64,000 nucleotides of DNA from an uncultured archaeon (lineage in GTDB: Archaea > Asgardarchaeota > Heimdallarchaeia > Heimdallarchaeales > Heimdallarchaeaceae), in assembly GCA_964534625.1 (NCBI GenBank), contig CAZHRF010000006.1, forward strand, positions 35,298 to 99,297, in the 5' to 3' direction. The notes beneath the pieces were generated by a model, which was not told where the DNA came from, did not search any database, and saw only the letters and a list, made by a program, of their open reading frames with translations. The translations under genes were made by a program, and so were the position numbers. Below, piece by piece: positions 34,695 through 64,000 of the stretch (the stretch's first letter is position 1; every line of letters starts with the position of its first letter).

Positions 34695-34843
34695 ACCTTT
34701 TTGCTCCTTTATGCAATTTATACTTGTTTAATATCTGGGTGAACGTACTCCTTTATAAATAACGTGAAAATGACGAGAAAAGTGAATCAAAAAAGGAAGA
34801 AAGGAAAGAAAAATAAGCGATAAAAAAACATGTAAAAATAATA

Positions 34844-35092: not shown

Positions 35093-36631
35093 TTATGACC
35101 AGAGAAAACTAAACTCATTATAAATATCGCGAGATTTTTTAAAACGTTTCTTTAGTTCCCTTTCTACGTCTAGTCTATCTTTGAGATGAAGATAAATTTT
35201 AAGATAATTGTTGTTTCGTAAATTTATGCCTTTTAGATCTTTACATTTGTATAGATCGTCTTTAGAAATAAAGGTAATAAAATTATTCCCTAGTCCTAGA
35301 TGCGATAAGTTAGTACATTTCCATACGTCTTTGGGAAAAACACTAAATAAATTATTTTTTATATATAAATGTGTTATAGTATCATTTTCTTCTAGACCTT
35401 GGAGGTCGTGTAAATGATTCCCATCAAGATTAATTTTTTTTAATTTTGGAAAGTCGTGTAGTTTTTTGGGAAAAGAAGTAAAAAAATTCCCTCTGAGATC
35501 TAATTCAGTAAGGTTAGGCCATTTTTCAGGGTTTAGTGGTAATTGAGTTAAATGCATCTTTGGTAACCGTACACCTACAAAATCAGCATACCAATTTACG
35601 TCGAATACCGTATTTTCCGTATAATAATATATATCATGTTCGTTTAACCATCCACCCAACTTTCCTAGTTCGTCTTTTTTTTCAGTGGTCAATTTAAATT
35701 CTACGTTGGGATGATAATTGTTATACCCAAAGAAACGACTAGCCCACGTATCATAATAATTTACATCGGTCGGGAGATAAAGATATTTTGTGTCTTCATG
35801 TTTAGACAGCAGTGTATGGGTTTGACTATATACTTTCCCATATTCTTTAATCAGTACAAATATGACAGATCCCTCTTTTTTATTATTCTCATTGGTGTCT
35901 TTATGGAATACGATATTCTTTAATTTATTTATGTCATGATTATAAATGTTCACTCCATATAACCTCGTATCCATCAGATTTAAAATCAAATCTACGGTAT
36001 CATAGGTGCCAAATTTGCATAAATCCACCTGCAACGAATAGTTACAAAATAGTTCATTTTCCCATGTTTCCCTTGCATCTTGAAATTCAAATACACGATT
36101 GTCTTTATCTAACGGAATAAGTTCAATATTCTTATCCGTTGTCTTTAAAATTTCTGTATAAAGTGCATCAATAGGCGGGTTATCAATACTCTCATAGCTA
36201 TCGGAATGAGAAATATAAAAATCAAAGAACCTTTTCATGAGCCCCACATAAAAAAGCACATTATTAGTTCTTGAAAATATACTCGACCACTCTCGGTGGG
36301 AATCAATATAGTTCTTAACACACTCAATTATTTTTTCTTTACATAGCCGTACATCCGTTATTAATGAATCTTTGGGAAAGGTAAACAATAACCCGTATTT
36401 ACTGGTCAAGGTAAATTTGTTTCCTGCGAGAAGCATATCCTCTATCTTATTGTCACACATGTAATGAATATCTATCTTATACTGGTCAAACAGTTCTTTA
36501 AGTGTATAGCGTATGTATCCTTTAAACATGTACAAGAACGTTTTACAATAATAGTGTAAGGGGATAAAAAATTCATATGTATCGTTTTTCTTATTCTTCC
36601 TAATCACTGCGTCTTTTCTTATCCAACTCAT
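35093..36631 (-). CDS. protein with unknown N-terminal region and ~5 C-terminal leucine-rich repeats
   Basis: LxxLxLxxN repeats: LTELDLRGN, LKKINLDGN, ITHLYIKNN, LSHLGLGNN, LKGINLRNN. GGTGA RBS; no signal peptide. Confidence 0.85.
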   Translation of the reverse strand: MSWIRKDAVIRKNKKNDTYEFFIPLHYYCKTFLYMFKGYIRYTLKELFDQYKIDIHYMCDNKIEDMLLAGNKFTLTSKYGLLFTFPKDSLITDVRLCKEKIIECVKNYIDSHREWSSIFSRTNNVLFYVGLMKRFFDFYISHSDSYESIDNPPIDALYTEILKTTDKNIELIPLDKDNRVFEFQDARETWENELFCNYSLQVDLCKFGTYDTVDLILNLMDTRLYGVNIYNHDINKLKNIVFHKDTNENNKKEGSVIFVLIKEYGKVYSQTHTLLSKHEDTKYLYLPTDVNYYDTWASRFFGYNNYHPNVEFKLTTEKKDELGKLGGWLNEHDIYYYTENTVFDVNWYADFVGVRLPKMHLTQLPLNPEKWPNLTELDLRGNFFTSFPKKLHDFPKLKKINLDGNHLHDLQGLEENDTITHLYIKNNLFSVFPKDVWKCTNLSHLGLGNNFITFISKDDLYKCKDLKGINLRNNNYLKIYLHLKDRLDVERELKKRFKKSRDIYNEFSFLWS

Positions 36632-36927
36632 TTTTTCACCATATATATTTTTTACCTTGTTCTTCTTTTTCTGTTCTCATTCTTAGTGTTAACTATCTCT
36701 ACTAGTATATATAAGTTATACATATATAAAGGTACTCAAGTAGAAAATAGAACATAAAAAAAGGTTTCTTTTGCTCTAACTCTAACTTAATGAAAATTCT
36801 CTCTTTGCATTTTCTCCTTCCCCTCCTCCTACAAATATAATCAGTTAGATATGATTAATAAAGAAAAAAATGATAAGTTACAATGACCTTTGAAGTTCGT
36901 AAAAAAAGAAGAACGAACCAGTAAACG

Positions 36928-39900
36928 CTACGAGTCTCGTCTAGTTCTATACCACGCTTCAAAATTAATATACTGCCATGCTCGTTCTAACTCTAATGGA
37001 TAAATGTCCCATGCAGATTTATTCTTCTTATTACGTTTGGCTAGATCATTCACAAGATTTCTTAACCTTTGAGCATTATTCCCTATATTAAATCTCCCAT
37101 GACTACTTCCTATTTCCATTACCGACTGCCACATCATACAAATATGATAACTAGATTGGAATTGCAATAACGCTTTATCATCTAGATTAGCAGCTTGTTC
37201 TAAAGCTATAGACGCTTTAATATATCCATATAGATATATTCCCACTTGTTGTCTTATGGAAAGGGGATTCTCTTCTTCTCTTCTAGTATATCTCATATAT
37301 TCTGGAAGGAAAAGTGAATCTTCTAAACAATCTTGTATACCTCGTAATATCTCTTTCTGATCATCGTCTAAAGATGGATGGTCAGTGATGTATTCGTCAA
37401 TATGACTCGCTTCTAATACCCCTGTTCCTTTTAATTTCTTCTCATCTATCTGCTTTTTAACCCACAAGTTTACATCATCAAATACTTGCCTATATTCTTT
37501 ATACTTAAGATCGGCTTCTACCTTTTTATCGGTTCTTAATACCCAAGAATACGCTGGTTGTTTATATATTTGAAATCTTTCATTATCTTCTGCTACAGGT
37601 ATATACCTTCCATAATCAGTATATTTCTCATATACTCCCATAAGAAAACTGGTTACAACTATCTTCTGAATAGTTGCTTCAATATTAGTTGTGATTGTCC
37701 CCCCGTGATCTCTCTTTTGTAATAAAGATAAGTCAAACCTCCCCTTGTTTTGCTCTGTCATTGTTTCCATGTTTTCTATAATTTGTTCCCATGTTAAACC
37801 GTCTACTTTCTTTTTCGCTTGGTGATAGTTTAACAAGTTGTCTGGATCTTTTCCCATTTCATATTTTATCAATATCTCATATAACGCGGGTTCATGTTCT
37901 AATATATTTTTAGGCACTGCAACCAAATCATTATATTCCCTGATGATATCTTCTCTCGACTTACCTTGAGTAGAACCACAATATCTTTCTACAAAATTTG
38001 TTTCTATTTCATTATTTAAATTAGTAGTAGCATAAGAATTCTTATTTTCACCTGCTAAAGTATCGCTTCCCCCTACCACCCGTTTTAACAATGTAAACCC
38101 ATTTTTAGTCACTGCTAAATAAATCTGGTCATTGCGTGTGCTTGTCGTTATAGGTAAATAAGGGTTATATTTACTTTTTCCATCTATCTCTCGTCCATTT
38201 ACATCTATCCCCATATCCACCTTTTTGAGGTAAGTCACACCTAGGGCATTTTCTTCTCCATTACTCCTTACAATTGCTTGGTGTATCGCATCTGCTATTT
38301 GTTTATTTTCTGGACTCTCTTTATACCATATTTCAAAATCTGTTTTACCTTTTTTCACTTTCTCGTGATATGTTTTAACTTTCTGTAAGTCATCGGGATA
38401 AGTAAGGTCTAATTTAAATGTTGTATCTCCAACTTTGTCTCCAGCTATTACTAGTTTATTAGACCATCCATTTTTTCCCTTTTTAATATTTCTAACTCCT
38501 TCTTCCGCTGTTGCAATAACTTGTGATAGTTCAGTTACCCATATTTTTGTCGTATCTATTGTCCATTTTTGGTTTGGGCACTCTACTTCTATAAAGAATT
38601 TATCTTTCGCGTCGTAAGATGCTCTTAACCCTATTATGTTACCATATCTAGTGCCATCTTGGTCACCACCCTTCTTATCCTTTCCATATACATATCTCGC
38701 CAACTGTTCTATTAATATTTTCCCTGTATGTTGTGCTTCTACTAATAAACGAGAGTTAAGAGGTGATTCGGAAATTACTATATCTTCAAGAGAAGATAAT
38801 TTCTTACCTGAACTATCTTTTCCATATGTATCTATATCAAATAATTTTTTTGCTTCTGTATCTATTCCTTTTCCTTCCAATTCAGGATAATACCTTTTTA
38901 ACCCACAATCCATGTGTACCGTATCTATCCCCCCCATTAGTGCTCTATACTCATGTGAATCTCTGTCTATTGAAGCCCATTCATTTATATGTATCTTCCC
39001 GTTCATTAATCTTCTATACCTATCATATTTCCATGCATATTTGTTATGGTCTGTCTTTTCTATTTTAATATCTCTACCCGACCTAGTATCTGTCTCAGTT
39101 AATAAATATGCATTTACATACCCTACTCCATACGCATAATTTTCATCTGTAGTTTCTAATTTTGCAGTATTTAATATATCCAAAGGATATGTATGTTCAT
39201 ACCCGTTAGTCACTTTAACATTTTCACCTTGTAGTAATATCTGTTGTAATCTATATGATAAAAACAAGTCCATACTTGTCGGTAATGTATCGCCTTTTGC
39301 CATTGCATATATAGCCAAACCATTATTTCTAAAATCATTTATACTTGTATATTCGCTTTTCGTAAATTCATTGTTAATCGCTCCCCCTAAATTTTTGTAT
39401 GTATCAGCTTGTATAATAGTTCCATCCGCCTTAAAAACATAGTAATACTTATTATCTTTATGGTAAAAAATAGCTGGAGATAGTTTATAATCTTCTCCGT
39501 TTATTCTTACATTAAAAACATTATCTCCAGTAGAATATTGAGATAAATATATTTTACTCCCGTCAACTTCTGTTACTGTTATAGGTTCACCGTTGTTAGG
39601 TAATTTTACTCCATCAAAAATTTCTGTATATGCTGTATATTTTATAGAACTGTCATCTGCTTTCAAATATACACCAGCTAGCGATTTTGTCCTATCTGTT
39701 ATGGACAAAAACAGATCTGTCCCTGTTTTATCTTTTAATGTTACTAACCCATCACTATCTGTTTTTAAAGCCACCTCTCCTTGAAACATGGCTTTGATAT
39801 TGCTTACCATCATTTTCTTTCTAAATAATGTTAGTAAATTAATATTAATACATCTACTCTTTAGTTCAAGTGTATGGGCTTCCAAAGCATCTTTAAACGT

Positions 39901-42900
39901 CTCTGCTGTAAACGTTTCTCCTTCTGGTGGAAATATATTCCATTGTTTTTGAAAAGTTTCAATGACATTTCTAACATTTATTACTCCTCCTCCAGGTGTC
40001 TCATAAGTAGGTACATACCCGTTTTGATGCTGGTCTATACTATCTCCCGTATACTCTTTTATAATACCTAAATCCTTTAAAACTTTCTTTGTTACCTCAT
40101 CATCAGTATTACTATCTATATATATAATATTCCCATCTTTTTCTTTGGGTTTATATAAACTTTTAGCGTAATTTTTCATTTCCACTTCTATTGCAACTTC
40201 TTCTGTTTCATATCGTATCGTTCCGTCGTCATTTTTTATTTCCCTAATTTTTTCTCCTATCACTACTGCATCTGCACCTGTTACTGATTCTTTTATATCA
40301 GATTTGAATAGACTAGAGATAGCTAAATGAAGATCCGATTGAAAGTTATCATCCTTCCACGCATAATTCTTCTCCATATCATACGCCAATTTTACATCTA
40401 CTAGTTCTCCTGTTGTAGGATCTATTTCTAATTTTAACCATTCCGAAGTCGTAAGTACTATATATCCTCTGGTTTTAAATTGGTCTTTTATTTGTATTTC
40501 CATCCTTTCTAAATATTTCTTTTTTAACGTAGGATTATTTATTATCTCCATAGCTTTAATAAAAGACAATACTTTTTGTTTTATTTCAGCATAATCATTA
40601 CCCAAAATTTTTTTCAAATGTTTAGTTTGTAAAAGTTTTAGTGACCAATTTCGCACTAAATCTTTTATCACATCATCTTTAGTTTGGAAATTACCACCAT
40701 TTTCATTGGCTATATCTCTAAGAACTTCCCAATAGTTATTCTTTTTATTTTCTAGTTTTACTCCCTCGTCGGTCAAAAATGCTTTAAACTCTTTTACTGT
40801 TTCTTCATCTAACCATTTATTGTTTTCTATATCCTCTACAATGTTGAAAACTTTGTTAACAATCTTTGAGGCTTGTTTAGTCTCTTCCCAGTTTACTGAC
40901 CATTGAATCTTTACTAAAAGATATTCTATCAACTGGTGCGTATATAACTCACTTATCACTTTTTTAAACAAACTGTCATCTTCTACCTTAACATTCGTAA
41001 ATTTCTGTGTTCCATCGTTGTTGTGACCTATTGCAATACGTATTTGGTTAGTTGACTCACTTTTCTCTATCCAATGTATTGTACTTATGGCAGGTACTTT
41101 TCCTTTATTGTCTATATTCTGCAGTAATGCTTCACACCAACCTTGAAGTTTCATATAGTTTTGATCAATCAACCACCTAGTATTGTAGGGATCTTTATAC
41201 CCTGAATTTTCTTCCCCATTACCAAATGTCTTTTTTATCGCTTGTATTTCATAATCCTTTATCTTTGGATTTTCTTCCACTAAAGCTCTAAACTCTTCTT
41301 CAGTGATCATTAACCCTTTATATGGTTCATTAAATTGATTATATGCTTTTGCCCATGACTGTTTATTTATCTTAGCCATTAGTGCATCATGTCTTGGACC
41401 ATAATGATCCTGATCTTTCCACACTTCATCGAACTCATCACCAAAGTCATTACCTAATGTTTCTAGCTTTAATCCGATGTTATCATTACCATTTAAAGAT
41501 AAAGATAAAGACGAAGATGAAGATGTAACTTCTCCCTCAGATACACCATAATAACCTAGATTACCCAAAATACTTCCTGCAGGTCCCCAATCATACATAT
41601 CTTCAAACATTTGTTGTATCCAAAAATTACTAGCAAACGATTGAGCATACTGGTAAAAACCATTACCATATGTTTTTTGCATTAATAGTGCAGCCTTTCT
41701 TCCACTTATACCGCTCGTCATTAAAAACAATTGTAGCCCCATAGAAACCAAGTGATGTCTCAATCCTACTACCGTACCCAATGTTGTAGTATATACTGTT
41801 TGTGGCCAAAATATTCCCCATTGAATAAAAGCATTTACCAAGTTAGCTGAAAAAGCAAAATAAGTACCAAAACTCATTTCAAACCCCAGTCTATGTTGGT
41901 TAAATTTGAATGCTTGTTTATGAAAATCTATTTGTGCCAATTCTGCTTCAATTTGTTTGTTAAACAATTCATCCATAAATGAGGAACGGTCAGGATCTTT
42001 AATTGTATCTTTATCAACTTGTTCTTTCAGATATTTTCTCAAATGGTCATAATATCCCTCATTATCTAGTTGTCGTTGAACCATATCCCCTGCATCATGT
42101 GAAGGATCATTCATATTAGATACTATAGCTATCAAATCCATAGGTATTTGTGATATAGCCAAATGTCTAAAGAACGTATCAGGATCAAATAACGCATCTC
42201 TAACATCTTGATAAAGAGCATAGGTATCAAATCGTGCCATAAAGCTTTCCATTATAGACATGAACCTTGACTCTCTTATCCCTAACCCTATATTTAATAA
42301 AGGTAAGACCATATTGTCAGAAAACCCATAGTAAAATTCCCAATGCCATCCATCATCTTCATCAGGTCCATTAAACACTCTATAAATAACTATATCAGCT
42401 AACTGGTTAAATTCACTTGGATTAGGTCTATCATCTGGATGTCCTACTCCTTCTTTTTTAGATGACGGAACATATACTGTTGAAACATTTGCCCCTATAG
42501 TTTCACTTATTGCAACTTTAAATCCAACCTGTCGCAACTTCTCGGCTATATATTTTACTTTAAGGTCATTATTCCACAATTCATCTTGAACATAATCTAG
42601 TTGTTTTTCTGTTCTTACAAGCCCCCACAAAAATCGCATAAAATTATTTTCATTACCTACAGAACCTTGAGGACCTACTTTACTTTCAATCTGATGGTCC
42701 AAAAAGTTCAAATGTAACAATTGGTTAGTATTTGATTGTACATGGGGTACTTCATTGATATTAACAGTACCAGAACACCCTCCAATAATGTTAATCCAAT
42801 ATAACATAAAGAATAATCTACTTAAATAATAGGTGATTTTGGTGTTAAAGCGACCGTAACCAAAACCAATATTATTTGAAAATTCTTGAAATAGGTGCAT

Positions 42901-45900
42901 TACCTCATTCCATTCATAATCACCTTTAAGAAAACCAATAACAGCACGCACAAGAGACATAAAATCTTGATAAAAACCTATTGCACTTTCTTTTATTCTT
43001 TCAAAGGCAGAGGTGAAAAATCTTTCTACTTTAGCGAAGATAACTTTTGCTTTATGTAATACATTATTCCATACATTAGTAATATATTTACCAGGATCAC
43101 TAAAGAAAAGTTCGATTTCATATTGAATAGTTTTAAATGATCCTTCGATAGTAGCCCCTATAAAATTAGGTAATCCAAGACAATCTAATATAATCATGCC
43201 TATCAAAAGTATACCCGCAACTTTAAAAGCCATTTTTAATAACCCCATGGCGAACATGGGAATAGCAAGTCCTCCAGTTAGACCAATAAATATAAGTGCT
43301 CCAGTAAAAACCACTATTGACACTACTATTGTATATGCGAGCATGTGGTCTTTCCAGTTCGCTTTCCAAGTATCATATAATTGTCCAGACTGGACAACGT
43401 TATAAAATTGTTTAATTGGACACCACACGTTATACTTTATATCGCTTACAAACGATTGCCACATTGACTTCGCAGCTTGAATAAATGCCCCTTCCCAATC
43501 ATAATTCATAACATATTCTTCTAGGGTTGCTCTTGCACTCATACGTGTAGAGATATCTAATGTTCTTGTATCCCCGCGTATTTGGTTATAAGTAAATGTT
43601 TTTAACAAATTGGATGTAGATAAAGTATATATTCCGTCTTTTTTATTGTTTATTTCTACTTGTAAAGAGTCAAGAGTATATTTTATATTGTAATCACCCA
43701 ACACAGTAACTTGATCAAATAATAAATTAATTGAAATAGTTTTGTCATTGAGATAAATCTTAAATTGTGTTGCATTAAACTTTTCCAATTCTTCGCGTGT
43801 TATATCAATATGTTCTATGTGTCCTGTATGATAATGTTCACCTAAAACATTCCAATATTCGATATCTATCACGTTATACAAAGTTAAAGATGAACCAACA
43901 TCAGTTAATTGCAAGTCAAAATTATTTCCTTTTACTTGTAATACATTATTGATATCAAGATTGTTGTTTACAACAGAAGAAGAAACATGCAAATAACTCT
44001 GGGTATCTAATGTTGCAGAGTGTGTATTGTGTAAACGCAAATTAGAAGCAGAAAGTTTGTTGGTGTTAGTTGTCGAACAAGGTACTAATTGTTGCACTTC
44101 AATTTTTTGTATTTGTAAATCATGGTATTCATGAGCTGTAAATTGATCATAAATATATGCAATGACAGCATACCCAATCATATCTGTTGGATCCCAATCT
44201 GCTATTCCTATCCATACTACTTTAACTGTATGAAATGCGGTACCATCAAAATAATAATAAGACATTAAATATTTCTTACTTGAATAACTTCTTCTAGCAA
44301 CATCCACAGTTTCCATTCGAGGAACATTTACCCCCCCACGATACTCATCAAGATTCAGATATATCCTTCTCTCTTCCCATTTTTCTAGAATATCTATATG
44401 ATAATCAGTAGGACCAGTAATGGGTTGTATAAATTCATTCATACCTTCAATAGACACAGTAAAGTTTTGGGTATAATTATTAACACCATCGAGGATAAAT
44501 GCAAATGTATGAAAACCACTGTTATGCCACTTTGTAACCTTATCTCCTTTATATGTGTCATTCAAGATATATTGCTTCATATCGAACTTGAATTTACCAT
44601 TTTCATCTGAAAGCAATAATTCATTATTAAATGTTGTACAGTTATGGTCTGTAGGTTGGCGGATAAGAAAACCATCCACATATATAGCTAAAATATGCGA
44701 TAGGTCAATATTACTATGTAAAGTATATTCAAGGTCATTAACCATATCTGTACCATGATATAATGTCGTAGAAACAAAAAGTTGAGTGTTGTTTCCATAA
44801 TGATCTCTCTTATACGTTCCTAACAGGCCTATTTTACCAAACTCAGTTAAAGTCGACGTCCTCAGTTCCATGTGTCCGTCAGTAATATTATTCGTTATTA
44901 TATCGCCATTAATAGGTGTACTTTTTTCTAATAGTTCAGTTAAGAAATAAGACATTGAGTTATTGTTGTAGATAGGGATATAATCAAGGGTATTGTTTAC
45001 CTCTTCTGGTCTAAAATATTCTCCCGTTTTATCTATATATGTCCCAGGATTTGATACCAACCATTCAGAAATAACCGTATGATTATTTTCGTCTAGATGT
45101 GTAGGTAAAGCATTTAACGGTAAATCAAATGAATGATCTAAAACAATTTGTATCTTGAAATATGGTTGATGTATTTGACTAATAGAACTATTTAAACCAT
45201 TATTATGTAGTCGGAATATAAAACTATGATATCCCCCTACAAGTCTTATTGGGATGTTTGTTGAATACACTTCATACTCTGTTGCACATTCATAATCAAA
45301 TCTATGAACAATAGGCGTGCTGGTCATAAAGGGTATGTTTGTTTCAATTACAAGCGAACCTATACTTTCTACATATGTTTTTACATTAAAAGCCAGATTA
45401 AAGGAAAATGTATCTTCAAAAGATAAATCAAGTTGATCGTTTAAATGAATAGTACCCAAATCATTTCCAGGCAATCTGGTCCAAATACTTTCTGAACCCA
45501 TTAAAATACTAGGTAAATTCTCACTTGGATTAATAGAGGGTACATCAATATAAAAATTAATGTCTTTTATATCTGTTAAAGAAGAACCACTAGTGATGGT
45601 AAATTTATAGTCATTTATACCATCATTAAAGTTTCCAACAGAAGCTAAAGTATACAAATTAACTAACGCATCTTCTGGATCTGTATAGTTAAAAATATTT
45701 GACGTATCAGTCTGTCCCATTTCTGCGTCATTTATATATTTAAGTAACCCTGCATAATTAAGGGCATAATAATGCCATGCTGAATCGTCCTTTATACGAT
45801 CATAATATTTTATTTCGTTATATGTTTCAAACCCAGTAGTAACCATATCTTGTGAGTTAACACCTATGGAATCTAAATAACTATCACCTAATATGATTTT

Positions 45901-51900: not shown

Positions 51901-54900
51901 ATAATCTGTTGTAACTGATCGAGTTAAAGAAACAGTTGCAGTAGAACTTAAAGTAGTAAGGGGTTCAATAAGTAAGCCTTCTCTATCATTAATAAACCCA
52001 ATATCAGAACTAGAGCATCCATCAAACATCGCTATCCAATTAGATTCTAAATAAGATTCGTAAATATTCTCTTGTAATTTATATTCTAAAGATGATTCAC
52101 TTGTACTATATGCACTCCCTGCCCAATAATACTCATCAACATAAATATTATCAACATAAAAGTTAGCATAACTGTGATCAAGATATGTTTCTTGTGAGAT
52201 CGATATGGTATTAATTTCAAAATTTTCCGTAGAGGTATAACTAATACTTTCTGTGTTTTGGTTATCAGTATAAATTATATCCCATTTACTAGAATCTTTT
52301 TTAATGGTAAAAAACAGATGTGTATCTTGTTCAATATACCATGTAGAGAAGGTTTTAGTGTGTATATTTATTCCGTCAATTATAATATCTAACGTTACAG
52401 TATGGTCTGTTTCACTTAAATCATGTAAAATCAAAGATAATGTTTGTTCATTCGTACCAAAAGATATTTTTTGGATACCTATAGCTGTATTATCAATAGT
52501 ATGTGTGTCATCATTCAAATTCCAAGTCGACATCAGATGTAATTCTGTATTAATAACTAAACAATCCGCATATGCTTGGTTATGTGTAAGATAAATCCCA
52601 TGATATCCTGTTCCAGTTTCAGAAACAAAATCTAACATATTGCTATCAGTTACTGGTTCAAATAATGTAGTTAGAAACCCATGTTCAGTAGATGCGATAT
52701 CATCTCCGTTGGAAGAAAGGTTCCAATTATCCAAATCAGTATCAAATGTTTCTTCAAATAATCTATGTCTAAGAGTTGTATATCCTTCTCTAGTATATAA
52801 TGCACTATCAGTAAACTTAAGATCAAAATTATCAGTAGATTTTATTCGAACTTGTATTGCACTTATTCCTTGATAAATACTTGGAGAATGAATAGTTGTA
52901 TTAAATATTATAACATTATCCACGCTAAAAATAACCGTATCATTAGTTTTTATGAGTTCATAGTTTCCTAAATTGCTTTCTGTATCCGCAACACCATATT
53001 CGTATCCGTCGACAATTAAATAATATCTATTCCCTTTTCTACCCACAATTATAAAAGGTGAATTGGCGTTATTACATAACCTTATTTGTACATCATCTTC
53101 CGCAGAAATAGCAGAAATATATTCGAGGTTAATATATAATTTAATATCACCTGCTATTGCAGTTAGTTTTTCTAATATTGCAGTTGAATGTGTCAAATTT
53201 TGATTTTGATCTATATCAACTAAATAATTACCGTTATCATTCAAAATGCTAATACTATCGCCTATAGTTGAACTAGTAAAAATATCTGTGACAATAGTAG
53301 AAGAATACTCTTGTGTCCATACTTCTCCTGTTGAATGAAGTGAATTATCATCATTCTCTACAAGATGAGGATAAAATATTTCATTTGTAGAATCAGTATA
53401 ATCATACGCATCTTCATACCCTGAATTTTCATCCCCTGCATAAACAAGCATGTTGTTATTTATATACGCCTTATTGCCCTTTCTATAATAATCCCATGCT
53501 TGTCTTGACTGTCCAAACGGTGTTGCACCCGAAAACCCTAATTCGTCAAAATATAAATCCCATGAAAAAGGCGTAAGAACTTCAAAAGATAAAATACTGT
53601 TAAATCGCAAAAGGTTAGGATTGATAGGACAATTTATGCGAACAAGCCCTTTTCCTTTTTCAAGTACCATTTTAGCTAATAATTGTCTTGCTATCCCTTT
53701 ATCTTCTATTTCATCTATATAAAAAGCAACAGTTACGTCTTTTGGACCAGTATTCATAGCTCGAAGATGTAATCTATTTGCTGCAAAAGGTTCTCTTGTC
53801 AATATAGACAATGAACTAACATCAGCGATAATATTTTCTATCATAAAACCGATTAATTGAGGTTCATATGCACTTGTAAATGCTCCTAAATGTACTTCAT
53901 TAGATATATGAACTGTGGTTCCATTCTTATCAAATGTTAACTCAACAGAATATTCTTTATCTGTCTCTATTTCCATTACCTTTTCAGAAATGGTATTAAA
54001 TGAACCGTATCCCAAATGTTTTACAATCCTAACTATATCATCACTATCTGGATTATATACAAATTGCAAAGCATAGCCCACATCTGAAACATTATCATAA
54101 TTAAAAAGTAAAGAGAAAATAGATGGGGTAGTTTCACCTACTTCTTTTAATGAAAAATCAAAATTGACCTTATAACTATCTTCTAGAGTTAAATGAGTTA
54201 AACATGATTGAGAAAATCCAGTTGTATGAGTTGCATTTAACCTTAATTTGCCATCAATAATATAGGTATAATTGCTATCATATGTCCAATCGGTATAGAG
54301 ATCAGTTCCAAAAGAAGGTGATTCGTATATAGGAATAGTATTTTCTATTAAATAGGATACATATCCTCCATCAACATTTGTATCAAGACGTAATACTCTC
54401 TCGTTAATTATGCCTATATCTTGTCCATTTCCATATACCCGTTCAACAGTTGCAATACCCGTTTTGTATATACTTTTCGAAAACTCTTCGGCGTTTATTA
54501 TTTCACCTGGTGTATATCTATATTCATCTCTTTCACTATCTATATAGAGATAATTCATAACCAACCCAGTATCTACTTGGTTGGTATTATTAAACCACGA
54601 TATACGAATGTCTATATGTACATATTGTCCTGCCCACCTATCTAAATTTACATCATCAAATGTCGGTACACCATCAAGATATTCATATTTTGATACAAGT
54701 GAATGGTATAAATATGGATCATCAGCCGAATATAAATCAATTCCAATGTGATAACCTGTTTCTTCATTATTAACCAAAGACAAAAACATATAAGACAAAG
54801 ACAGTCTTGTTGATGAAGGTAATTGCATATAGAAATGATAAGATCTTTTTCCACTTTCAATTCCATTAACAGGGAAAAACCTTGCATTATGTCCTAGTTC

Positions 54901-55560
54901 CGTTGCTTCAATATACCCTAATTCACTTTGCATATTTCTAGCACTTATATAATATTCGGGATCAAACATCTCACTATCAGCTAGAAAATCTTTATGATGA
55001 TAATCAGGAGTATATAAGGTGATAACCTTAATTTTACAATCATAGGTATTTTCATCTTTATCTATAATTCTAATAGTAATAAATGATGTATCTTTGAAAA
55101 TATAATAATCTATCCTTGCTCCACGTATAGAATGAAAGTTATCTTTTTTATATAGAACTTTTGTGCTATTCGAATCATAAATAACTAACGAATCAATTTT
55201 ATCAGAAGCAGCAGTAGGTGTTTCTATAGTCAATAATAAAGGACTATTTCCACTCCACGTACCTATGAATACCGTTTTTTCTGCAAAATTATCATCGGGA
55301 ATACGTAAATAATTGTACCAAATATCTAGTCCATTACCTGACCAACCCAAAGTAGAATTATTAAAATGCGTATCCTTTACGAAATAATAGCCATTATCGA
55401 ATGTGGTTGGATGTTGTATATAAACCGCCGATACGTCAGCTATTAACATAAAAACAAGTATTAAAATTGTAATTGATACTTTTAACACGTTATTTTTTTC
55501 AAGTTTCTTATTAGTTTGATGTATTAATTGTGTTGTTTTATTTTTTATTTTCTTTATCAT
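36928..55560 (-). CDS. giant 6210 aa secreted/membrane protein: lectin-like ectodomain, hydrophobic helical region, C-terminal PD-(D/E)xK-like domains
   Basis: 18.6 kb uninterrupted ORF; signal-like N-terminus (VSITILILVFMLIADVSA); AGGTGA RBS; TAATG overlap with the upstream gene. Confidence 0.9.
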   Translation of the reverse strand: MIKKIKNKTTQLIHQTNKKLEKNNVLKVSITILILVFMLIADVSAVYIQHPTTFDNGYYFVKDTHFNNSTLGWSGNGLDIWYNYLRIPDDNFAEKTVFIGTWSGNSPLLLTIETPTAASDKIDSLVIYDSNSTKVLYKKDNFHSIRGARIDYYIFKDTSFITIRIIDKDENTYDCKIKVITLYTPDYHHKDFLADSEMFDPEYYISARNMQSELGYIEATELGHNARFFPVNGIESGKRSYHFYMQLPSSTRLSLSYMFLSLVNNEETGYHIGIDLYSADDPYLYHSLVSKYEYLDGVPTFDDVNLDRWAGQYVHIDIRISWFNNTNQVDTGLVMNYLYIDSERDEYRYTPGEIINAEEFSKSIYKTGIATVERVYGNGQDIGIINERVLRLDTNVDGGYVSYLIENTIPIYESPSFGTDLYTDWTYDSNYTYIIDGKLRLNATHTTGFSQSCLTHLTLEDSYKVNFDFSLKEVGETTPSIFSLLFNYDNVSDVGYALQFVYNPDSDDIVRIVKHLGYGSFNTISEKVMEIETDKEYSVELTFDKNGTTVHISNEVHLGAFTSAYEPQLIGFMIENIIADVSSLSILTREPFAANRLHLRAMNTGPKDVTVAFYIDEIEDKGIARQLLAKMVLEKGKGLVRINCPINPNLLRFNSILSFEVLTPFSWDLYFDELGFSGATPFGQSRQAWDYYRKGNKAYINNNMLVYAGDENSGYEDAYDYTDSTNEIFYPHLVENDDNSLHSTGEVWTQEYSSTIVTDIFTSSTIGDSISILNDNGNYLVDIDQNQNLTHSTAILEKLTAIAGDIKLYINLEYISAISAEDDVQIRLCNNANSPFIIVGRKGNRYYLIVDGYEYGVADTESNLGNYELIKTNDTVIFSVDNVIIFNTTIHSPSIYQGISAIQVRIKSTDNFDLKFTDSALYTREGYTTLRHRLFEETFDTDLDNWNLSSNGDDIASTEHGFLTTLFEPVTDSNMLDFVSETGTGYHGIYLTHNQAYADCLVINTELHLMSTWNLNDDTHTIDNTAIGIQKISFGTNEQTLSLILHDLSETDHTVTLDIIIDGINIHTKTFSTWYIEQDTHLFFTIKKDSSKWDIIYTDNQNTESISYTSTENFEINTISISQETYLDHSYANFYVDNIYVDEYYWAGSAYSTSESSLEYKLQENIYESYLESNWIAMFDGCSSSDIGFINDREGLLIEPLTTLSSTATVSLTRSVTTDYDFTLDLLLSIKGVERTGDFYLSLNNMYNYLHIQFDGQNMYIEMVTDVGTDSIVIDKSSLLFNTLRIVKEGTTIIIYTDINIQNQLSPLLQTETSTYTISSIELVTLLQPTTPIEVNLKHIAVKDSSANEYGNPWDEGHLIINEHFSEISNWDISGYNYYNLNYNLVNTTQLSTNFTREYKENEWYGNIYSHLYMFQRDFVFDLLIDYLLDGTYGKMSFVLEDHLQYPNFMELCFSSTTPTSIDMGLYIQGVLHEEITFYENIDAYVFRIHRDKDTIHVSTNYGDQEQLSTLFSFTSDIEHIYIDRIKIKQLSLGKNENTHSMRVDAMYINAYSTPISNPAPFEIINSFVAPDYSTMFNTIEDFTTYTYGLTHTNDVPYDISDGLQTQFLFGDYSNKERGRTYWKEMVLIDNFLLNALINTTVNYNSQGSTYIEFLDNCYDTVFKLEFTTKNNTFIINLYAYDVLVSSYVDDTTNEIEQWVRFGRYDNELKLGLYRGDYYVPLQSSLSADGTITKSMVSNIFAVKITQTGIYTQDIYPNTFRLKEITLGSEATYDETTLVERESPEEENFIASYDMYLQNETRFSITATTNYYIGDNTTERLTFNIYLLEIDSIFDMNNAIYVGSIIFLDTDFDVHTHSLVIIGYEGLYEVVIMIDRRVPVQLHTLRATDIGSSSEAEQDYEYMSDGIGWADTFDNYSSTNYWAENVFTTEKMFTITSFSSSTFNYYPYTEGFDVNFNFNILRVSYNDSIGSPGIIVINHQPINVANYPFLALEIMTDELCKDSRIQLIINEELYDITPFTDRKKGFVTIHKNLYEILYPNIDQAIGQLAIQVNSSVSFTIRNIEVYKILNYEYNHIEEANEDSYADVGYSTNNNLVITFLIGHGISTERMTTEWDIYTYFKSTFKDVSINYFYANDEAFPTWYENTIENSDKRHMLVIFDQIPDYLVEYYYWYDNYGRPFEKIKLEEWYDKGHYLLWAGSQPFKYKVESGGSTITTIPTEIVNKYFGRVIDTNYIPNDINLNISSRGNDVGLQQYNPEWMVNASDLYGFGGLSTYYNATGVIYNKTEHGDLIDTEPLWFDYAWYGDYIGAKYGFLQALDTELLLRVFYYYFVDHLSVNNVFGNLLLNGPISLQKTFTSSKNYQIIQTHTSEYITVGINNQHTFNFTLLEQFSLVEHGINTVNSYSLDIYNDTLVSLYSIKLININGYSQKEHYVFDEPHSPDFNHNFVVTHGKFNEKNEYDMLAPAFYNGTNSAAYLDSNSFGEYVLEVEMSHKQYHYQENGRELAGIVIDIPSIDSENGIVESLFIGFKTVEDMNASYPTSLFVAKFTGSFDTYTVLYENKFINLGNSITHKLGDLEWEAQNYNIQPMKLYIKKSITDTNLVKYDIFAKAYRVFQLSAFTDEQERQVISDGEYRCKTEWFADTTSITLDSNHNGYVGIYGNHSNYYYNSLSIYPITSGYAGDYLNINDGIGSLSVGGTWINGEVSTNWQKMEDVNYLITLSNILQNVGLQAGLYLDENLNYNWEDDPDDWDHYIEIGLVNEHGHEVSIIWENDGFKLYGGLTDYMILTHERAKSDQLYKVGMRIDDSTGDVTFTIYGANDINTTLASHTFKGGLLEPGFRSWNEQVKLFVRTTNTMAYIDEVRNGKFVAQPLTYSSGRGLVGAGEISYWLKGQSEYSLELRNNSMSNVYLMGNYTEKLGVFTTTFALNGSTTMNILSSYFDDILFNISIIDNALYVNATNLNYILSSNKGYKLTYYFNSTFVNLTLNDITRFEELKSWEFNDYHPNIFVGYEYTININTTKGSVYFNNIAINTLNSLFTKKDKDTWVFTSNPLFSNYLYRKTSYLQLVMNPIFGTTNITVLGNGKEIAHKVVKYEPFATNHPVIIMLQGFNTHGLHRYTLIFSNVIEFDRIALGYSQPVVKYLYTQPTNASAKMSDSKYNIAIQDFNGNFVLEDFTIEQATSNIEFAYRLPVGQYIEIALPLKATFYDDYLIDSKEMYLKIILGDSYLDSIGVNSQDMVTTGFETYNEIKYYDRIKDDSAWHYYALNYAGLLKYINDAEMGQTDTSNIFNYTDPEDALVNLYTLASVGNFNDGINDYKFTITSGSSLTDIKDINFYIDVPSINPSENLPSILMGSESIWTRLPGNDLGTIHLNDQLDLSFEDTFSFNLAFNVKTYVESIGSLVIETNIPFMTSTPIVHRFDYECATEYEVYSTNIPIRLVGGYHSFIFRLHNNGLNSSISQIHQPYFKIQIVLDHSFDLPLNALPTHLDENNHTVISEWLVSNPGTYIDKTGEYFRPEEVNNTLDYIPIYNNNSMSYFLTELLEKSTPINGDIITNNITDGHMELRTSTLTEFGKIGLLGTYKRDHYGNNTQLFVSTTLYHGTDMVNDLEYTLHSNIDLSHILAIYVDGFLIRQPTDHNCTTFNNELLLSDENGKFKFDMKQYILNDTYKGDKVTKWHNSGFHTFAFILDGVNNYTQNFTVSIEGMNEFIQPITGPTDYHIDILEKWEERRIYLNLDEYRGGVNVPRMETVDVARRSYSSKKYLMSYYYFDGTAFHTVKVVWIGIADWDPTDMIGYAVIAYIYDQFTAHEYHDLQIQKIEVQQLVPCSTTNTNKLSASNLRLHNTHSATLDTQSYLHVSSSVVNNNLDINNVLQVKGNNFDLQLTDVGSSLTLYNVIDIEYWNVLGEHYHTGHIEHIDITREELEKFNATQFKIYLNDKTISINLLFDQVTVLGDYNIKYTLDSLQVEINNKKDGIYTLSTSNLLKTFTYNQIRGDTRTLDISTRMSARATLEEYVMNYDWEGAFIQAAKSMWQSFVSDIKYNVWCPIKQFYNVVQSGQLYDTWKANWKDHMLAYTIVVSIVVFTGALIFIGLTGGLAIPMFAMGLLKMAFKVAGILLIGMIILDCLGLPNFIGATIEGSFKTIQYEIELFFSDPGKYITNVWNNVLHKAKVIFAKVERFFTSAFERIKESAIGFYQDFMSLVRAVIGFLKGDYEWNEVMHLFQEFSNNIGFGYGRFNTKITYYLSRLFFMLYWINIIGGCSGTVNINEVPHVQSNTNQLLHLNFLDHQIESKVGPQGSVGNENNFMRFLWGLVRTEKQLDYVQDELWNNDLKVKYIAEKLRQVGFKVAISETIGANVSTVYVPSSKKEGVGHPDDRPNPSEFNQLADIVIYRVFNGPDEDDGWHWEFYYGFSDNMVLPLLNIGLGIRESRFMSIMESFMARFDTYALYQDVRDALFDPDTFFRHLAISQIPMDLIAIVSNMNDPSHDAGDMVQRQLDNEGYYDHLRKYLKEQVDKDTIKDPDRSSFMDELFNKQIEAELAQIDFHKQAFKFNQHRLGFEMSFGTYFAFSANLVNAFIQWGIFWPQTVYTTTLGTVVGLRHHLVSMGLQLFLMTSGISGRKAALLMQKTYGNGFYQYAQSFASNFWIQQMFEDMYDWGPAGSILGNLGYYGVSEGEVTSSSSSLSLSLNGNDNIGLKLETLGNDFGDEFDEVWKDQDHYGPRHDALMAKINKQSWAKAYNQFNEPYKGLMITEEEFRALVEENPKIKDYEIQAIKKTFGNGEENSGYKDPYNTRWLIDQNYMKLQGWCEALLQNIDNKGKVPAISTIHWIEKSESTNQIRIAIGHNNDGTQKFTNVKVEDDSLFKKVISELYTHQLIEYLLVKIQWSVNWEETKQASKIVNKVFNIVEDIENNKWLDEETVKEFKAFLTDEGVKLENKKNNYWEVLRDIANENGGNFQTKDDVIKDLVRNWSLKLLQTKHLKKILGNDYAEIKQKVLSFIKAMEIINNPTLKKKYLERMEIQIKDQFKTRGYIVLTTSEWLKLEIDPTTGELVDVKLAYDMEKNYAWKDDNFQSDLHLAISSLFKSDIKESVTGADAVVIGEKIREIKNDDGTIRYETEEVAIEVEMKNYAKSLYKPKEKDGNIIYIDSNTDDEVTKKVLKDLGIIKEYTGDSIDQHQNGYVPTYETPGGGVINVRNVIETFQKQWNIFPPEGETFTAETFKDALEAHTLELKSRCININLLTLFRKKMMVSNIKAMFQGEVALKTDSDGLVTLKDKTGTDLFLSITDRTKSLAGVYLKADDSSIKYTAYTEIFDGVKLPNNGEPITVTEVDGSKIYLSQYSTGDNVFNVRINGEDYKLSPAIFYHKDNKYYYVFKADGTIIQADTYKNLGGAINNEFTKSEYTSINDFRNNGLAIYAMAKGDTLPTSMDLFLSYRLQQILLQGENVKVTNGYEHTYPLDILNTAKLETTDENYAYGVGYVNAYLLTETDTRSGRDIKIEKTDHNKYAWKYDRYRRLMNGKIHINEWASIDRDSHEYRALMGGIDTVHMDCGLKRYYPELEGKGIDTEAKKLFDIDTYGKDSSGKKLSSLEDIVISESPLNSRLLVEAQHTGKILIEQLARYVYGKDKKGGDQDGTRYGNIIGLRASYDAKDKFFIEVECPNQKWTIDTTKIWVTELSQVIATAEEGVRNIKKGKNGWSNKLVIAGDKVGDTTFKLDLTYPDDLQKVKTYHEKVKKGKTDFEIWYKESPENKQIADAIHQAIVRSNGEENALGVTYLKKVDMGIDVNGREIDGKSKYNPYLPITTSTRNDQIYLAVTKNGFTLLKRVVGGSDTLAGENKNSYATTNLNNEIETNFVERYCGSTQGKSREDIIREYNDLVAVPKNILEHEPALYEILIKYEMGKDPDNLLNYHQAKKKVDGLTWEQIIENMETMTEQNKGRFDLSLLQKRDHGGTITTNIEATIQKIVVTSFLMGVYEKYTDYGRYIPVAEDNERFQIYKQPAYSWVLRTDKKVEADLKYKEYRQVFDDVNLWVKKQIDEKKLKGTGVLEASHIDEYITDHPSLDDDQKEILRGIQDCLEDSLFLPEYMRYTRREEENPLSIRQQVGIYLYGYIKASIALEQAANLDDKALLQFQSSYHICMMWQSVMEIGSSHGRFNIGNNAQRLRNLVNDLAKRNKKNKSAWDIYPLELERAWQYINFEAWYRTRRDS
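41495..41524. repeat. hexamer tandem repeat (RAAGAY)x5 encoding a Ser/Leu linker
   Basis: aaagat aaagat aaagac gaagat gaagat, encoding part of TSSSSSLSLSL on the minus strand. Confidence 0.7.
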
Positions 55561-58500
55561 TAGCTATCACCTTTTTTAAAATTAGACAAATTTTTTTTCA
55601 TAAATTTTAGTAGGTTTTTTTTATTTTTTAAGATTAAAATAGAAGTTGCAATGACCGATATAGTACTTGTACTACTTATTAATACTATAGGTAAAGCATT
55701 TATCCACTTATCATGGAGATCTGTTATACCATCATTTTTATCACTCTCTGCTGGTAATTCCAAAAGATACTCTTTAGTCTGATTGTAAACACTTTCTACT
55801 GTATTTGACCATGCTTCAACACGCAATATGATTTTTTGAGTGGTATTAATTACGTAGATAATCTCATTTGGATAATAGTAATAATCTTGTTGCCAAATAT
55901 CGTCAAGTTCAAATTTATACTTTACCTTAACCAAATACGTATTCAACGAACATATAGAAACCCTATGTACTTTCTCACTGCTAATATCTATGGTATTTGA
56001 CATTTTTTCTTTATATTGGGGTTCAAAAGAACCTAAACTTATATTATACAAAGATTCTATGTCTATAGTATTACCTCTTAGATCTCGATAGTATAAGTTG
56101 ATATCATAAATAGTATCGATTAAAGAATCAAAAACTATAGTAGATATATGAATATCATTTCCGATATATTGAAGAGCATAAATATGAGTAAAATTCTCGC
56201 TTTTCAGTTCTAATTTATAATGTCCAGGGGCATTTCTAAGCTGGTCAGTACTTACTGTATATTCAAGATTATTATAACTGTTTTTTAAACGGTTAAAATC
56301 AAATATATTTATTACCCGTTCACTTGCTGTAAGAATATCTGTTTTTTGTTCATCGTTCACTTCTTTTTTTGAACCTAGAAAAGTTGGAGAAAAACCAGGA
56401 TCCAAGAGATAGTTACTACTCGTAACTGATTCCGATTGCCAACTACCATACTTCCACCTATATTCTGGATCTCTTGCTCTAAATCTGTAATAAAATGTAC
56501 CAGTATTAGGAAACATTATAGTTGCCCGATAATATCCCCAAGTGTCTTTATCTCTACTACCCGAATACAAACTAAGGGAGGGGGAAGTATTAGGAGAACT
56601 AGATGTACCTCCTGTCCCTGCTCCATAATACTGGAAGTTAACTTCTGTTGTATGCCACCCTTTATCCTTTATTTTGGCTTCAAACGTACCAGAATCGTCT
56701 TTATACAACATAGCAGTGAGACATGCTTGATAATCAATAACAGGTGCCGCACCGTTTGGTTCTGTCCAAGTTAATGTTTTTATACTAGAATACCAATACC
56801 CACTATAACTGTTTTGTGGATCTATTCTAATTCGATATTCAAGATTCGTATCAGGTGATTTAGACCATGAATAACTAAGCGTAAATTTAAACCTCCACTT
56901 TGTATATGAACCATCATCATAATTTTTTCCATCAGCAGCATTTTTTACTATCCAACTATCCCCACTATTCCACCTATAAAGAAGTTTAACGTTTACGTCT
57001 TTGTCATAAGTGTTCCAATATCCGTTTGGAGGTGAATATTGACGATAATAAAAATATATATCTTCATTCAATCCAACATATTCTGTGCGATCAACTAACC
57101 CACTGTAAACACTAGGTGCTTTGTCATCACGATATCTTAAACAATCACTATAACAATTTTGAGAATAATAAGTTGATTGACTAGAATATTTCCAAAATAC
57201 GTTAATATCTAGGTTTCCTTGATATCCTCCTTGCCGTATGTCCATGCCTGAATTAGGGTATTGACCAGCCGCACGGTGTTCATTAAATATCCAAAACTCA
57301 AATATTGCATCATTTGAACCATCATCTGCCAAGTAAGTATAAGAAATAGCAGAAAAAGTTTTGTATTTATAATATGAAGAACTTAATCCATCAGGTTTAA
57401 AAGTTATTTTTATATAACATCTTAAATCCTCAGGAGGAGTATCTAGGTCTCTTATTCTTACCGATATCTTTGTATAACCAAAATGATTCCATACTGACAG
57501 ATAAGAATTCAACAAATTTGTAGTACTGGAATGACTAGATTTAACACTTATTATTTCAGGTGCATAAACATCTGCAAAAGTAATTTCGGTTATATATATA
57601 CTTTCTTCATTATTCTTTTCATCTTTACCTTCTAAATGTACTTTTATTGTATCACCAGCATATATAGAATTTGTGAAATAATCTTGAAATACAAAATCTA
57701 TATCAATAATCAACCGAGAATAATCATTTTCATCATTTGTATCATAAGGACATGTAAAATCATGACTTAAAAGGTTAATATATGCTGTTTCTTCATCGCC
57801 ATTTAAAACCATTTTAAGTTGAAAAAGACTAATAGTAGAAGCTTCAAGTATAATTGCATAGTCTAAACGGTATGTCTCTAGAGGACTATGACTACCCCCA
57901 TCACGTAAATCTAAACGATCAGCAACTAATACAGCATTAACATCATCATCAAAGGAGGCAGTATAAATTTGTTGTGTTGTTGTTTCTGTCGCAACATTTT
58001 TACTTTCACATACATATTTAAACTGAACATTAAATGAAAAATCTTTGTAAACTTTACCCGTATGGTCAGATATGCTATCATAAACACTAAATTTGATATC
58101 TATTTTTATTTCATTGTAAGTAATAACATTATTTATAGCTAATACATAATTTATATCGGGATCATTATCAGTAATAGTAACCAGTAAATAATTACTATCA
58201 CCATCTCCTACTGATGAAAGTACTTGAAAATCGTTTCCGTCAAAATCCGCTACATCAGTAGAGAAAGTAAAGGTAAACTGGGCATAATTGATGTTATTTA
58301 AATAAGTATTCCCTTCATCACTATTATCCCCCTCAAAAGTACACGTTAAGTCTTCGGTTATATCAAGAGACGATACAGCATCAGATCTAAAAGGATCAAA
58401 ATCTATTCCTACTTGTGGTTGATCAGTTGAACTAATTAAACGGTTTAAAATCATATGGTCCCCATTACTGTCTAATCCATAATATACATTATATGTATTA

Positions 58501-61500
58501 TCTGTAATAACTATATAAAAAAGACTATAATCAGAAGATAAAGAACTTGTTTCGATATTTATATAGAAAGTCCCAAATCCATCCACATCTACTTCTTGGT
58601 CTGTATCGTAAGACATAGTTATATCGCCCCAAGAGTTTCCAGTATGGTAAAATAACTGCACACTTAAACTATCAGGAGTATACGGCTCATCTTTGGCTTT
58701 TACTTCGACTCTTATTGTTTCTGTTATATCATTTCTCCATATATATGTACTATCAATTGGAGAAAGGGTAGTATCAACTACAGCATACGAATTATCAGTA
58801 ATAGAAACACTTACTTCGTTCCCATGATACATCATAAAATTAACAGTGTCTGCAGGTTCAGGTTTGTTACTAACATATCCCCCATCAAAACCTCCATACT
58901 CCACGGTTAATTCGACTGTTCCTGGTCCAAAATCCTCTGCTAATTGAGATTTGGATATACCCACAATACCAGTAACTTTTAGATAATACGTTCCTTCATT
59001 TGTTATTTTTGAATAAGAACCAATTATAACCCATGCGTCATTATAATATTTTTCTATTGTCTCTCTTGAAGCTTTAATTTTAAAGCAAGCATAATAATAA
59101 TCACTTTCATATGAGGTTTGATAATCTTGATTGTATGCACCAAAATCAAATTCTGCAGTGTATAATGTTTTCCAGTCTATTTTGATATATAAATCGTCTG
59201 TCTCTGTATCATCAAATTCACTATTATTAGGATCATCTAAAGCGATATCATTTATAATTACAGGTGAAGAACTAGAACTATCATACGTAACCGCCAACTC
59301 TTCATTTATAAAAGAAGAATCACTGGTTAATGTAGAATAAAAATTACCTGAATCCCATATATATCGAAATTCAATAAACAATTTAACTTTTCCTGCATAT
59401 AATATAGCTGAACTAGCTGTATAAGAAAACAGTTGATAATACCCATCCCCATCTGGGTTAAATTCACCATTATAAAACTCTTGTTTTCCGCCTATGTCAT
59501 CGGAAGTTCCCGCATCAAAATTGAAGAAATACGTATAATACGCTATAATTTCAATAGGATATTCTATATTATGTAAAGTTAATGTGAAACTAGGCGTAAT
59601 ACCCGAACTAATAAAACTATCTGGTGTTCCTTCTGTTGCAATATTGCCACTTATATCTTCATAATTTTTTGGGAGACTTAAAGAAAACGTTTGAGAGACA
59701 ACTAAAGTTCCTGTCCCTGTCCCATTATAATGTAAAAGTATAGTTAAGGAATCTTCCGTATAACTTAAACTATTAACAATATCCCCCCAAATTATAATAC
59801 ATTCCAATTTGTATTTCCACGGTTCATCAATAATTTCTATAAATGAAAATACAAGATCAGTATTACTACTATATGTTTGTAATAAAGTATTTTGCCCCTC
59901 AAATATCTTTAAAGTCCATATCCCGTTAAGAATTTGTGAAGGTGAAGCGTCAATTAATCCAACAGTATAGGTGTTATTAGTCCCACCAGTAAAAACAGTA
60001 TCTTGTGTTTCCACAATTAGAGGGGTATTATAGTTATCGGGATTATAGTAATCTTCCAAAACTGTTGTTGTAAGAGCCGTATCAACTAAAATTCCATTAA
60101 AATACCTATCCCTTATTGATATATACAAGACAAAACTTACTTTACCATCTTTATCACTATCTGCATTATAAAAATCTTCTTCTGATATAATCTCACTTAA
60201 ATCTAGTTTAAAGGTAACTGTACTATCATTATTAGTACTATCTTCGATTTTATAAGGAGAAGAAGATTGATACCAGTTACCGTTATCTTTATACCATAAA
60301 GCAGTCGTACCCATTAAATCTACTATATCTCCATTTCCCAGTTTATACTGGAAATAATATCCTGCATGACGATCTAATACCGTTTCATCTTCACAACTTA
60401 CTGTAAATTCAATAAATTCTTTATATCCATATATACTAGATATAGGATCCATATTATAAGAAGGAGCATACACATCATCAACATTAATAGACAATACTTC
60501 GTTATTCCAAGATGTTAGTGATAATTCATTCCCAGATGTATCAGCAATATTAATTTTATAATTAACTTTACATTCTCCATTATTATTTTCTGCACTACTT
60601 TTTACAGATTCCCATCTATACATCTCATTTATTTTGTCTTTAGATACAACATAAGTTATAGTATACGTATCTCCAGATACTTCAATAGAATCTACCTTAC
60701 CTAATGCATACCATGTTCCACCGTCATTAAAGAATAATGTTACACCATTGGTATCAATAGTTGTTTCATATTCAGAAGCTGTTATAACCACACTAAACCC
60801 GTTTATTTCGGGTGTATCGGTATTGTATTCATCTAGTTGTGTGACTGTAGGTGCAGTAGAATCACCAATGGTAAAACTATACGGGGATTGACTAGTTCCT
60901 TCATAAGTTTCCAAACCATTGTGTTTGACATAAAAATAATATACATATCCCCCAGCCTCCCATTGGTTGGTATTTATTAACACGTTGTAAGCTACTTTTT
61001 CACTATTGTTAATCTCATAATATTCTTTGAAACCCATGTTTGTTACTGACCAAGTACTACCATCATTTTTCTTATAATATAATTTAACAATATCCATATT
61101 ATCATTGTTTTTCACATCGTTTTCAGTGATATGAAGTACAAAGTCTATACTATCTCCAGAATTGTATTCACTTCCCGTTCCTGGTGAATAATAATTTATA
61201 CTAGGTGCGGTATTATCATTAACTATCCATGAAGGTAAATTTGTTGTAATTTCAATAGAGTTGGGTGTGCAGGCAGTATCTTCTATAATAAGTTTAGTGA
61301 TTGTAATACCGTCATAGGGCACATAATCTATTTCACTAATTATTAAAATGCCCTTTGTGTTATCAGAAACAACAGTAAATTGTGTTATTATGACCACATA
61401 TTCAATATTTTCTATATCATAATAAACGGTAATTTTACTTATTCCATTGTTATCATAAGCAATTATTTCAATAGATAGATCTGTTTTATCATATGCAGTA

Positions 61501-64000: not shown

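Follow-up and report, generated by a model that had tools for sequence, protein, structure and literature searches.

In the CDI (CdiBA/CdiI) and Rhs systems, a two-gene surface apparatus presents a large effector. Bacterial polymorphic toxins, among them those with Tox-REase domains and Imm-LRR proteins, have been described by Zhang et al. 2012 (PMC3482391), and archaea are reported to have few of the classical polymorphic toxins and few members of most immunity families (PMC3482391). The aloposons of Ca. Heimdallarchaeum (Otus/Ephialtes; Wu et al. 2022, PMC8813620) are characterized by tandem genes encoding 3000-6000 aa, by integration at a tRNA downstream of these giants, and by four upstream genes including MinD/ParA. 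The literature searched gave no function for the aloposon giants, nor did the passages of PMC8813620 that were consulted.

The window analysed here, i.e., the whole stretch of 64,000 nucleotides, belongs to contig C6 (CAZHRF010000006.1) of an uncultured member of the Heimdallarchaeaceae and holds three co-oriented genes, A, B, and C, all present as open reading frames on the minus strand (Table 1), as an earlier note on this DNA had described. The link to aloposons drawn in that note holds by homology. The C-terminal third of B was matched in six of 60 relatives searched, all of the same family, including the closed 3,326,783-bp genome G007 (a congener genome measures 3,081,793 bp), which carries three giant pairs, that of 3170 and 6099 aa being full-length homologues of A and B. 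Residues 1-4676 of B are 35-44% identical to 5978-6099-aa homologues, the tail only 23-28%, and all B-type tails are colinear. A profile of the helical motif (Table 1) retrieved second giants from ten of 400 genomes of the phylum, in two families of one order, and B shares this motif with the tRNA-anchored pairs of genomes G007 and G004.

Like aloposons, the locus has ParA/HTH genes near tandem giants, B with 6210 aa and A with at least 2812 aa on contig C6, where its frame stays open to the contig end. Its upstream block consists of a wHTH gene, a degenerate ParA, and a 71-aa ORF on contig C32, joined via assembly-graph ends and synteny, and for the 378-394-aa upstream gene this genome gave no match. 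The operon of five related loci opens with a gene for a subtilase with signal and anchor (D/H motifs in all, S seen in four), preceded by ParA and in most cases also by a wHTH gene, whereas this copy has no subtilase; an LRR gene follows B, and there are inverted end repeats. The element sits between a GT2 gene and a gene for a 940-aa protein rather than at a tRNA, and we thus regard the locus as an aloposon-related variant and not as a strict aloposon; the closest G007 pair likewise lacks a downstream tRNA.

Several further genes were seen beside such giants. One related locus has an IbrA-like gene, and a tRNA-anchored pair has a 484-aa DUF4365 gene beside a wHTH gene (L101:14515-15966; G004:C1:2020765-2022219), which may be a mobility enzyme. 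The first giant at G001:C7:34621-46876 is broken into two frames, of 1551 and 2566 aa. In this genome, a 2704-aa signal-bearing gene is coupled to 252- and 562-aa genes (C4:83355-93917), and a 389-aa gene is paired with a ParA 47% identical to an aloposon ParA (C4:65941-68141), both loci being devoid of B-like giants. C37:1-13013 holds an overlapping, signal-bearing, repeat-rich tandem of 2053 aa and more than 2285 aa, in which no likeness to A or B was detected.

Gene order in relatives reveals the insertion site, and the locus is not core genome, which passes one of the checks set in the earlier note. Four relatives link the gene order of C32 with that of the C6 flank and have a second GT2 gene at the position of the element; this gene is missing between C32:34847 and window position 34694, and the insertion may have removed it. 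As read from the sequence, we are dealing with an insertion of ~33 kb with inverted ends that is neither core nor at a tRNA. The end-repeat copies at the two borders differ at two positions in their outer 62 bp, no tRNA or Rfam family was found at the right end (nor any tRNA on C6 near its end), no clear target-site duplication was found (TATTA is off by one base), and a promoter scan stayed at chance level. Of the genes that the earlier note suspected beyond the window, ParA is present, on C32, with a degenerate Walker A and an HTH gene nearby; no transposase or integrase gene could be recognised, either in the element or among the related loci that were read, nor any VirB4/FtsK-type pump among the ORFs read, part of which were covered by a family scan.

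The right ends of C32 and C18 have 55 bp in common, which hold an RBS and an ATG, and those of C6 and C7 share 55 bp inside A. Evidence on the number of copies comes from assembly-graph unitigs of four source-like samples, in which a unitig of the 1343-bp class with ~1.8-fold depth adjoins a 27.3-kb single-depth unitig (which holds what remains of A and the whole of B) and also a 51-bp bridge, at about single depth, to the region upstream of C. From these depths and junctions there are two copies of the element, one with a 27.3-kb microhomology deletion. The second copy lies at C7:94497-96119 (L055), where B is lost and a gene C', 94% identical to C, is kept. Residues 1-270 of C and C' are identical, and the changes, mostly non-synonymous (the counts are small), fall in 271-352 and 468-510; as C and C' do not differ over their first 810 bp, either C allele and flank could go with the full copy. 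At C18:46687-47150, sequence similar to the B-C spacer lies with pieces matching the C7 flank, which suggests an older rearrangement at the locus of the second copy. The end repeat itself belongs to a dispersed family of ~12 copies with the core TTTATAAAGGAGTACGTTCAC (C61, C49, C41, C38, C20, C15, and C4), which was not found in the relatives' loci compared; its copies adjoin toxin-antitoxin and LRR genes, and at C61:3778-5040 an inverted pair encloses 1.26 kb in a MITE-like manner.

Table 1 Features of the locus and related loci (window coordinates unless a contig is named)
Feature	Location	Strand	Basis or remark
Host 940-aa membrane protein, flank, outside the element	31872..34694	-	after two GT2 genes in relatives
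Right end repeat	34727..34838		inverted copy at C32:34877-34987
Gene C, cytoplasmic LRR protein, 512 aa	35093..36631	-	LRR_8/LRR_4 above cut-off
Microhomology of deletion junction	36668..36682		pairs with about 63946-63960
B-C spacer with T-rich terminator-like tract	36724..36931		87% identical copy on C18
Gene B, second giant, 6210 aa	36928..55560	-	ORF and homologues
Tail of B, residues 4680-6210, exchangeable, sequon-avoiding	36931..41523	-	homologue comparison, sequon counts
PD-(D/E)XK-type residue set	39949..40587	-	E4992, G5095, D5097, E5127, K5129, Q5204
Helical motif, E..D-x-R/K-D..F-x-R..IP-x-D	42106..42273	-	common to all second giants
Hydrophobic hairpin, B residues 4074-4134	43159..43341	-	hydrophobic segment
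B ectodomain, beta-rich	43411..55422	-	sequons at expected rate
B N-terminal hydrophobic segment, residues 28-46	55423..55479	-	signal peptide or signal anchor
TAATG, A stop/B start overlap	55558..55562	-	resembling overlaps in relatives
Gene A, first giant, beta-rich stalk and C-terminal membrane anchor	55560..63998	-	frame open 63998-55560
A membrane anchor, then K-rich end	55647..55703	-	hydrophobic segment
Sequon-free zone of A above anchor, 879 aa	56589..59228	-	0 seen, 9.9 expected
Loci with LRR neighbour	G000:C6, G000:C41, G001:C7, G005:C43, G005:C100; convergent at G044:C106		G000 = this genome
Orphan tails	C60:10850-13285, C3:37700-40240, C32:9148-12849, C41:16662-20285		stand-alone ORFs

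The length of 2786 aa once assigned to A has to be revised, since the window ends where contig C6 ends and the start codon used is thus internal. Gene A aligns from residue 375-380 of its 3157-3224-aa homologues (identity 32-33% to those of 3170-3224 aa), and the 1343-bp unassembled unitig puts an RBS and an ATG exactly 420 codons upstream of A and in frame; from this join we infer a true length of ~3232 aa, with ~420 5' codons beyond the contig end. The remaining layout was largely as first read, i.e., the C-terminal membrane anchor of A, the TAATG coupling of A to B, and, in the 6210 aa of B, the N-terminal hydrophobic segment, the hairpin, and the change into a tail rich in K. Ig repeats in A are seen as weak matches (Big_13, E=0.012; Big_7 barely above the cut-off in one homologue). 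Second giants of the 5200-5500-aa subfamily do not show the hairpin of B as a strong segment, and the helical motif, which all second giants have, is a candidate translocation module. A comparison with PT-TG (PF14449) returned nothing from this genome with E values up to 10, nor a match among ten members, the likeness being one seen by eye. Neither Pfam nor NCBIfam gave a significant match to A, to B, or to any of nine tail segments; PDB sequence profiles returned nothing on the giants except a single weak lectin-like match in the B ectodomain (levanase carbohydrate-binding module, E=0.024); and word-based protein and contig searches found the query alone or no match.

Archaeal N-glycosylation acts on the outer face of the membrane, and sequons can therefore be used to ask on which side a domain ends up. 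In 14 giant tails we observed 22 N-x-S/T sequons where 147.5 were expected (ratio 0.15), whereas shifted sequon patterns occur in the tails at normal frequency. In this genome, the ratio is 0.93 for cytoplasmic proteins, 1.05 for K/R-rich soluble domains of membrane proteins, and 1.56-1.61 for ectodomains. Given that sequons are avoided in the tails while the cytoplasmic controls are normal, the tail appears to be exported yet kept bare under selection against N-glycosylation, and at the level of sequence both A and B are built for export. Among the stand-alone tails, several no longer avoid sequons, as would be expected once export ends. These ratios are hard to reconcile with a receptor-like B whose nuclease acts in the producer's own cytoplasm, where it would serve in defence or suicide and be regulated by C, and one second-giant subfamily moreover has no convincing internal membrane span; even though hydrophobic segments precede the K-rich tail and stand-alone tails persist as intact ORFs, we hold this to be very improbable.

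Sequon avoidance need not, however, mean translocation, because A has a sequon-free zone too (Table 1), and such a zone, of 720-1875 aa above the anchor, was present in all nine first giants examined. This conserved zone may mark where A meets B or another A, and it is no more than a hint that A tethers B; avoidance can thus also mean that a domain is buried in a complex rather than translocated. Accordingly, the tail might stay outside, buried in the A-B complex or acting on extracellular DNA, as part of an adhesin or scaffold and not of a weapon, a reading that would also suit the failure of the fold models described below to confirm a nuclease. Set against it are the sequon-rich true ectodomains, the cytoplasm-like charge of the tail, and the tail exchange and LRR linkage, which it leaves unexplained, and we judge it quite unlikely.

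The tail carries a PD-(D/E)XK-type set of six residues (Table 1) that is invariant in 11-12 homologues, and an E/D/ExK/Q set is listed for Tox-REase-1, -6, and -7 (PMC3482391, Table 2). The proposal of several nucleases in the tail was not borne out: there is one conserved catalytic set, with no second evident beyond residue 5445, where conservation is almost all hydrophobic or Gly, and regex matches to HNH-like and HEPN-like domains were discarded as not conserved. Other tail subfamilies, though unalignable with B, have GxD..ExK 490-643 aa past the helical motif; at that spacing it occurs in seven of ten tails against a null of ~0.04 per tail, a comparison that is supportive only, pattern and window having been picked post hoc. 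hhalign gave no alignment between tail subfamilies, and the Mrr_cat and NOV_C profiles did not match the giants. The folding check gave no confirmation of the expected nuclease fold. Residues 4985-5300 of B were modelled with AF2 at pLDDT 73, with low values near the motif; the model places D and ExK at the two ends of a predicted beta-hairpin and matched no PD-(D/E)XK structure (Foldseek; VIA, best Z 3.6; Atlas); the model of a compact homologue reached pLDDT 37, at which structural matches are meaningless. An ESM feature match of the tail to an Mrr-like cluster (0.87) is a lead only. Taken together, the motifs make it probable that the tail is a nuclease.

A conserved N-terminus with an exchanged C-terminus, as foreseen in the earlier note, is evident from three close pairs, in which identity falls sharply at the tail. 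There dS jumps 3-10-fold (0.093 to 0.99, 0.124 to 0.46, and 0.174 to 0.55), and dN/dS is 0.14-0.22 in the body and 0.28-0.48 in the tail. Because of the jump in dS, the tails must be of other ancestry than the stalks, which indicates that they are swapped between elements by recombination; alternatively, recombination of an incoming element's body with a right end already in place would give the same jump. No change of enzyme class is seen across the tails. This genome also has four dispersed orphan tails of three subfamilies (Table 1), which may be relics. The C60 orphan keeps GFD..VEFK, lacks an export signal and an LRR neighbour, and is possibly a domesticated nuclease, while the C3 orphan has lost the catalytic E. 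In several genomes, a remnant of a B-type tail lies upstream of a RuBisCO-family gene (L069:8001-9746; G026:C296).

Exchange of this kind would also be seen if A and B formed a cell-cell junction that serves the spread of the element, with a site-specific endonuclease delivered to cut a recipient site that the element then invades, and with tail exchange as a change of target site. The inverted ends and ParA of an element without a recognised transposase or integrase would agree with this, as would the single enzyme class, the many loci without an immunity neighbour, and a near-identical giant pair of G007 and G004 that sits at tRNA-Asn and tRNA-Gly and differs mainly in its tail. However, a Sec-exported tail cannot carry DNA out, no VirB4/FtsK-type pump was recognised among the ORFs read and in part family-scanned, and neither LRR enrichment nor orphan tails are predicted, so that we regard this scenario as unlikely, if the least so of the rivals.

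Gene C is, as proposed, a cytoplasmic LRR protein, with matches to LRR_8 and LRR_4 and no hydrophobic segment. Its repeats span residues 372-475, and no relatives were detected for its N-terminal 350 aa. It begins 296 bp past B, behind the T-rich terminator-like tract, and translational coupling is absent. An LRR gene adjoins the tail at six of 22 loci, in four genomes and two families, while LRR genes make up less than 1% of genes (~6-15 per genome); the binomial P is ~7e-8 at a rate of 1%, the loci not being independent. The six neighbours have the repeats alone in common, and none has a hydrophobic segment. At the other 16 loci, including all seven B-type loci outside this genome, the next genes are host genes, tRNA, cargo, or ORFs without assignment. 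The variable downstream gene looked for in the earlier note is thus seen, and it is an LRR gene far more often than expected; most loci have no such neighbour. LRR genes adjoin the end repeat without any tail as well, and C may for this reason be generic cargo; that it is an immunity factor of the carrier is plausible, at somewhat less than even odds.

We postulate, with a probability of roughly 0.55, that this aloposon-type element encodes a Sec-exported, contact-dependent polymorphic nuclease effector. Membrane-anchored A would hold or sheathe B, whose beta-rich ectodomain would bind a neighbouring cell; a surface subtilase, in the related loci that have one, may process the assembly. Insertion into the membrane of the target would fall to the conserved helical module, and the tail, free of glycans, would enter the target cell and cut its DNA. 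The producer would be spared since the tail would fold only outside, and cytoplasmic C might, with the reserve already expressed, protect against kin. Such a contact toxin is favoured by the sequon avoidance, the tail exchange, and the LRR linkage, and further by the invariant residue set, the orphan tails, the subtilases of related loci, and the second copy that lost B and kept its LRR gene. It is weakened by the 16 of 22 loci without an LRR gene and the commonness of LRR genes as cargo, by fold models that matched no nuclease structure, by the C60 orphan with its intact motif, and by the one enzyme class shared by the tails.

With polymorphic toxins the locus has in common a signal peptide, a long stalk, and an exchangeable C-terminal region, together with stand-alone cassettes, E/D/ExK/Q residues, and LRR neighbours; subtilisin is among their listed processing proteases (PMC3482391), comparable to the subtilases of the related loci. 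It differs in being archaeal and borne by a mobile element, in a payload of ~1500 aa with the nuclease internal, in orphans that are dispersed and not arrayed, in the lack of an immunity neighbour at most loci, and in the absence of any Pfam toxin or PT-TG match; and whereas classical polymorphic toxins vary the enzyme class, all tails here have a single one. The two-gene apparatus and the proposed contact delivery are also those of CDI and Rhs, but no TpsB/FHA or RHS repeats were detected, and in place of a beta-barrel partner there is a stalk anchored in the membrane.

Such likeness suggests that aloposon giants are contact weapons akin to bacterial polymorphic toxins. The wider proposition, that aloposons as a whole are mobile, Asgard-specific contact toxins with an anchored giant, often a co-encoded subtilase, a 5000-6000-aa carrier with a swappable bare nuclease tail, a new helical translocator, and diverse cytoplasmic LRR proteins as immunity, is one that we put forward tentatively and think rather more doubtful than not. 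Sequon avoidance also offers a general means to map exported-but-bare domains in archaeal giants. The archaea closest to eukaryotes have few proteins as large as the aloposon giants. If our reading is true, Asgard archaea would attack their neighbours through a novel machine for protein translocation, with LRR proteins protecting the attacker itself.
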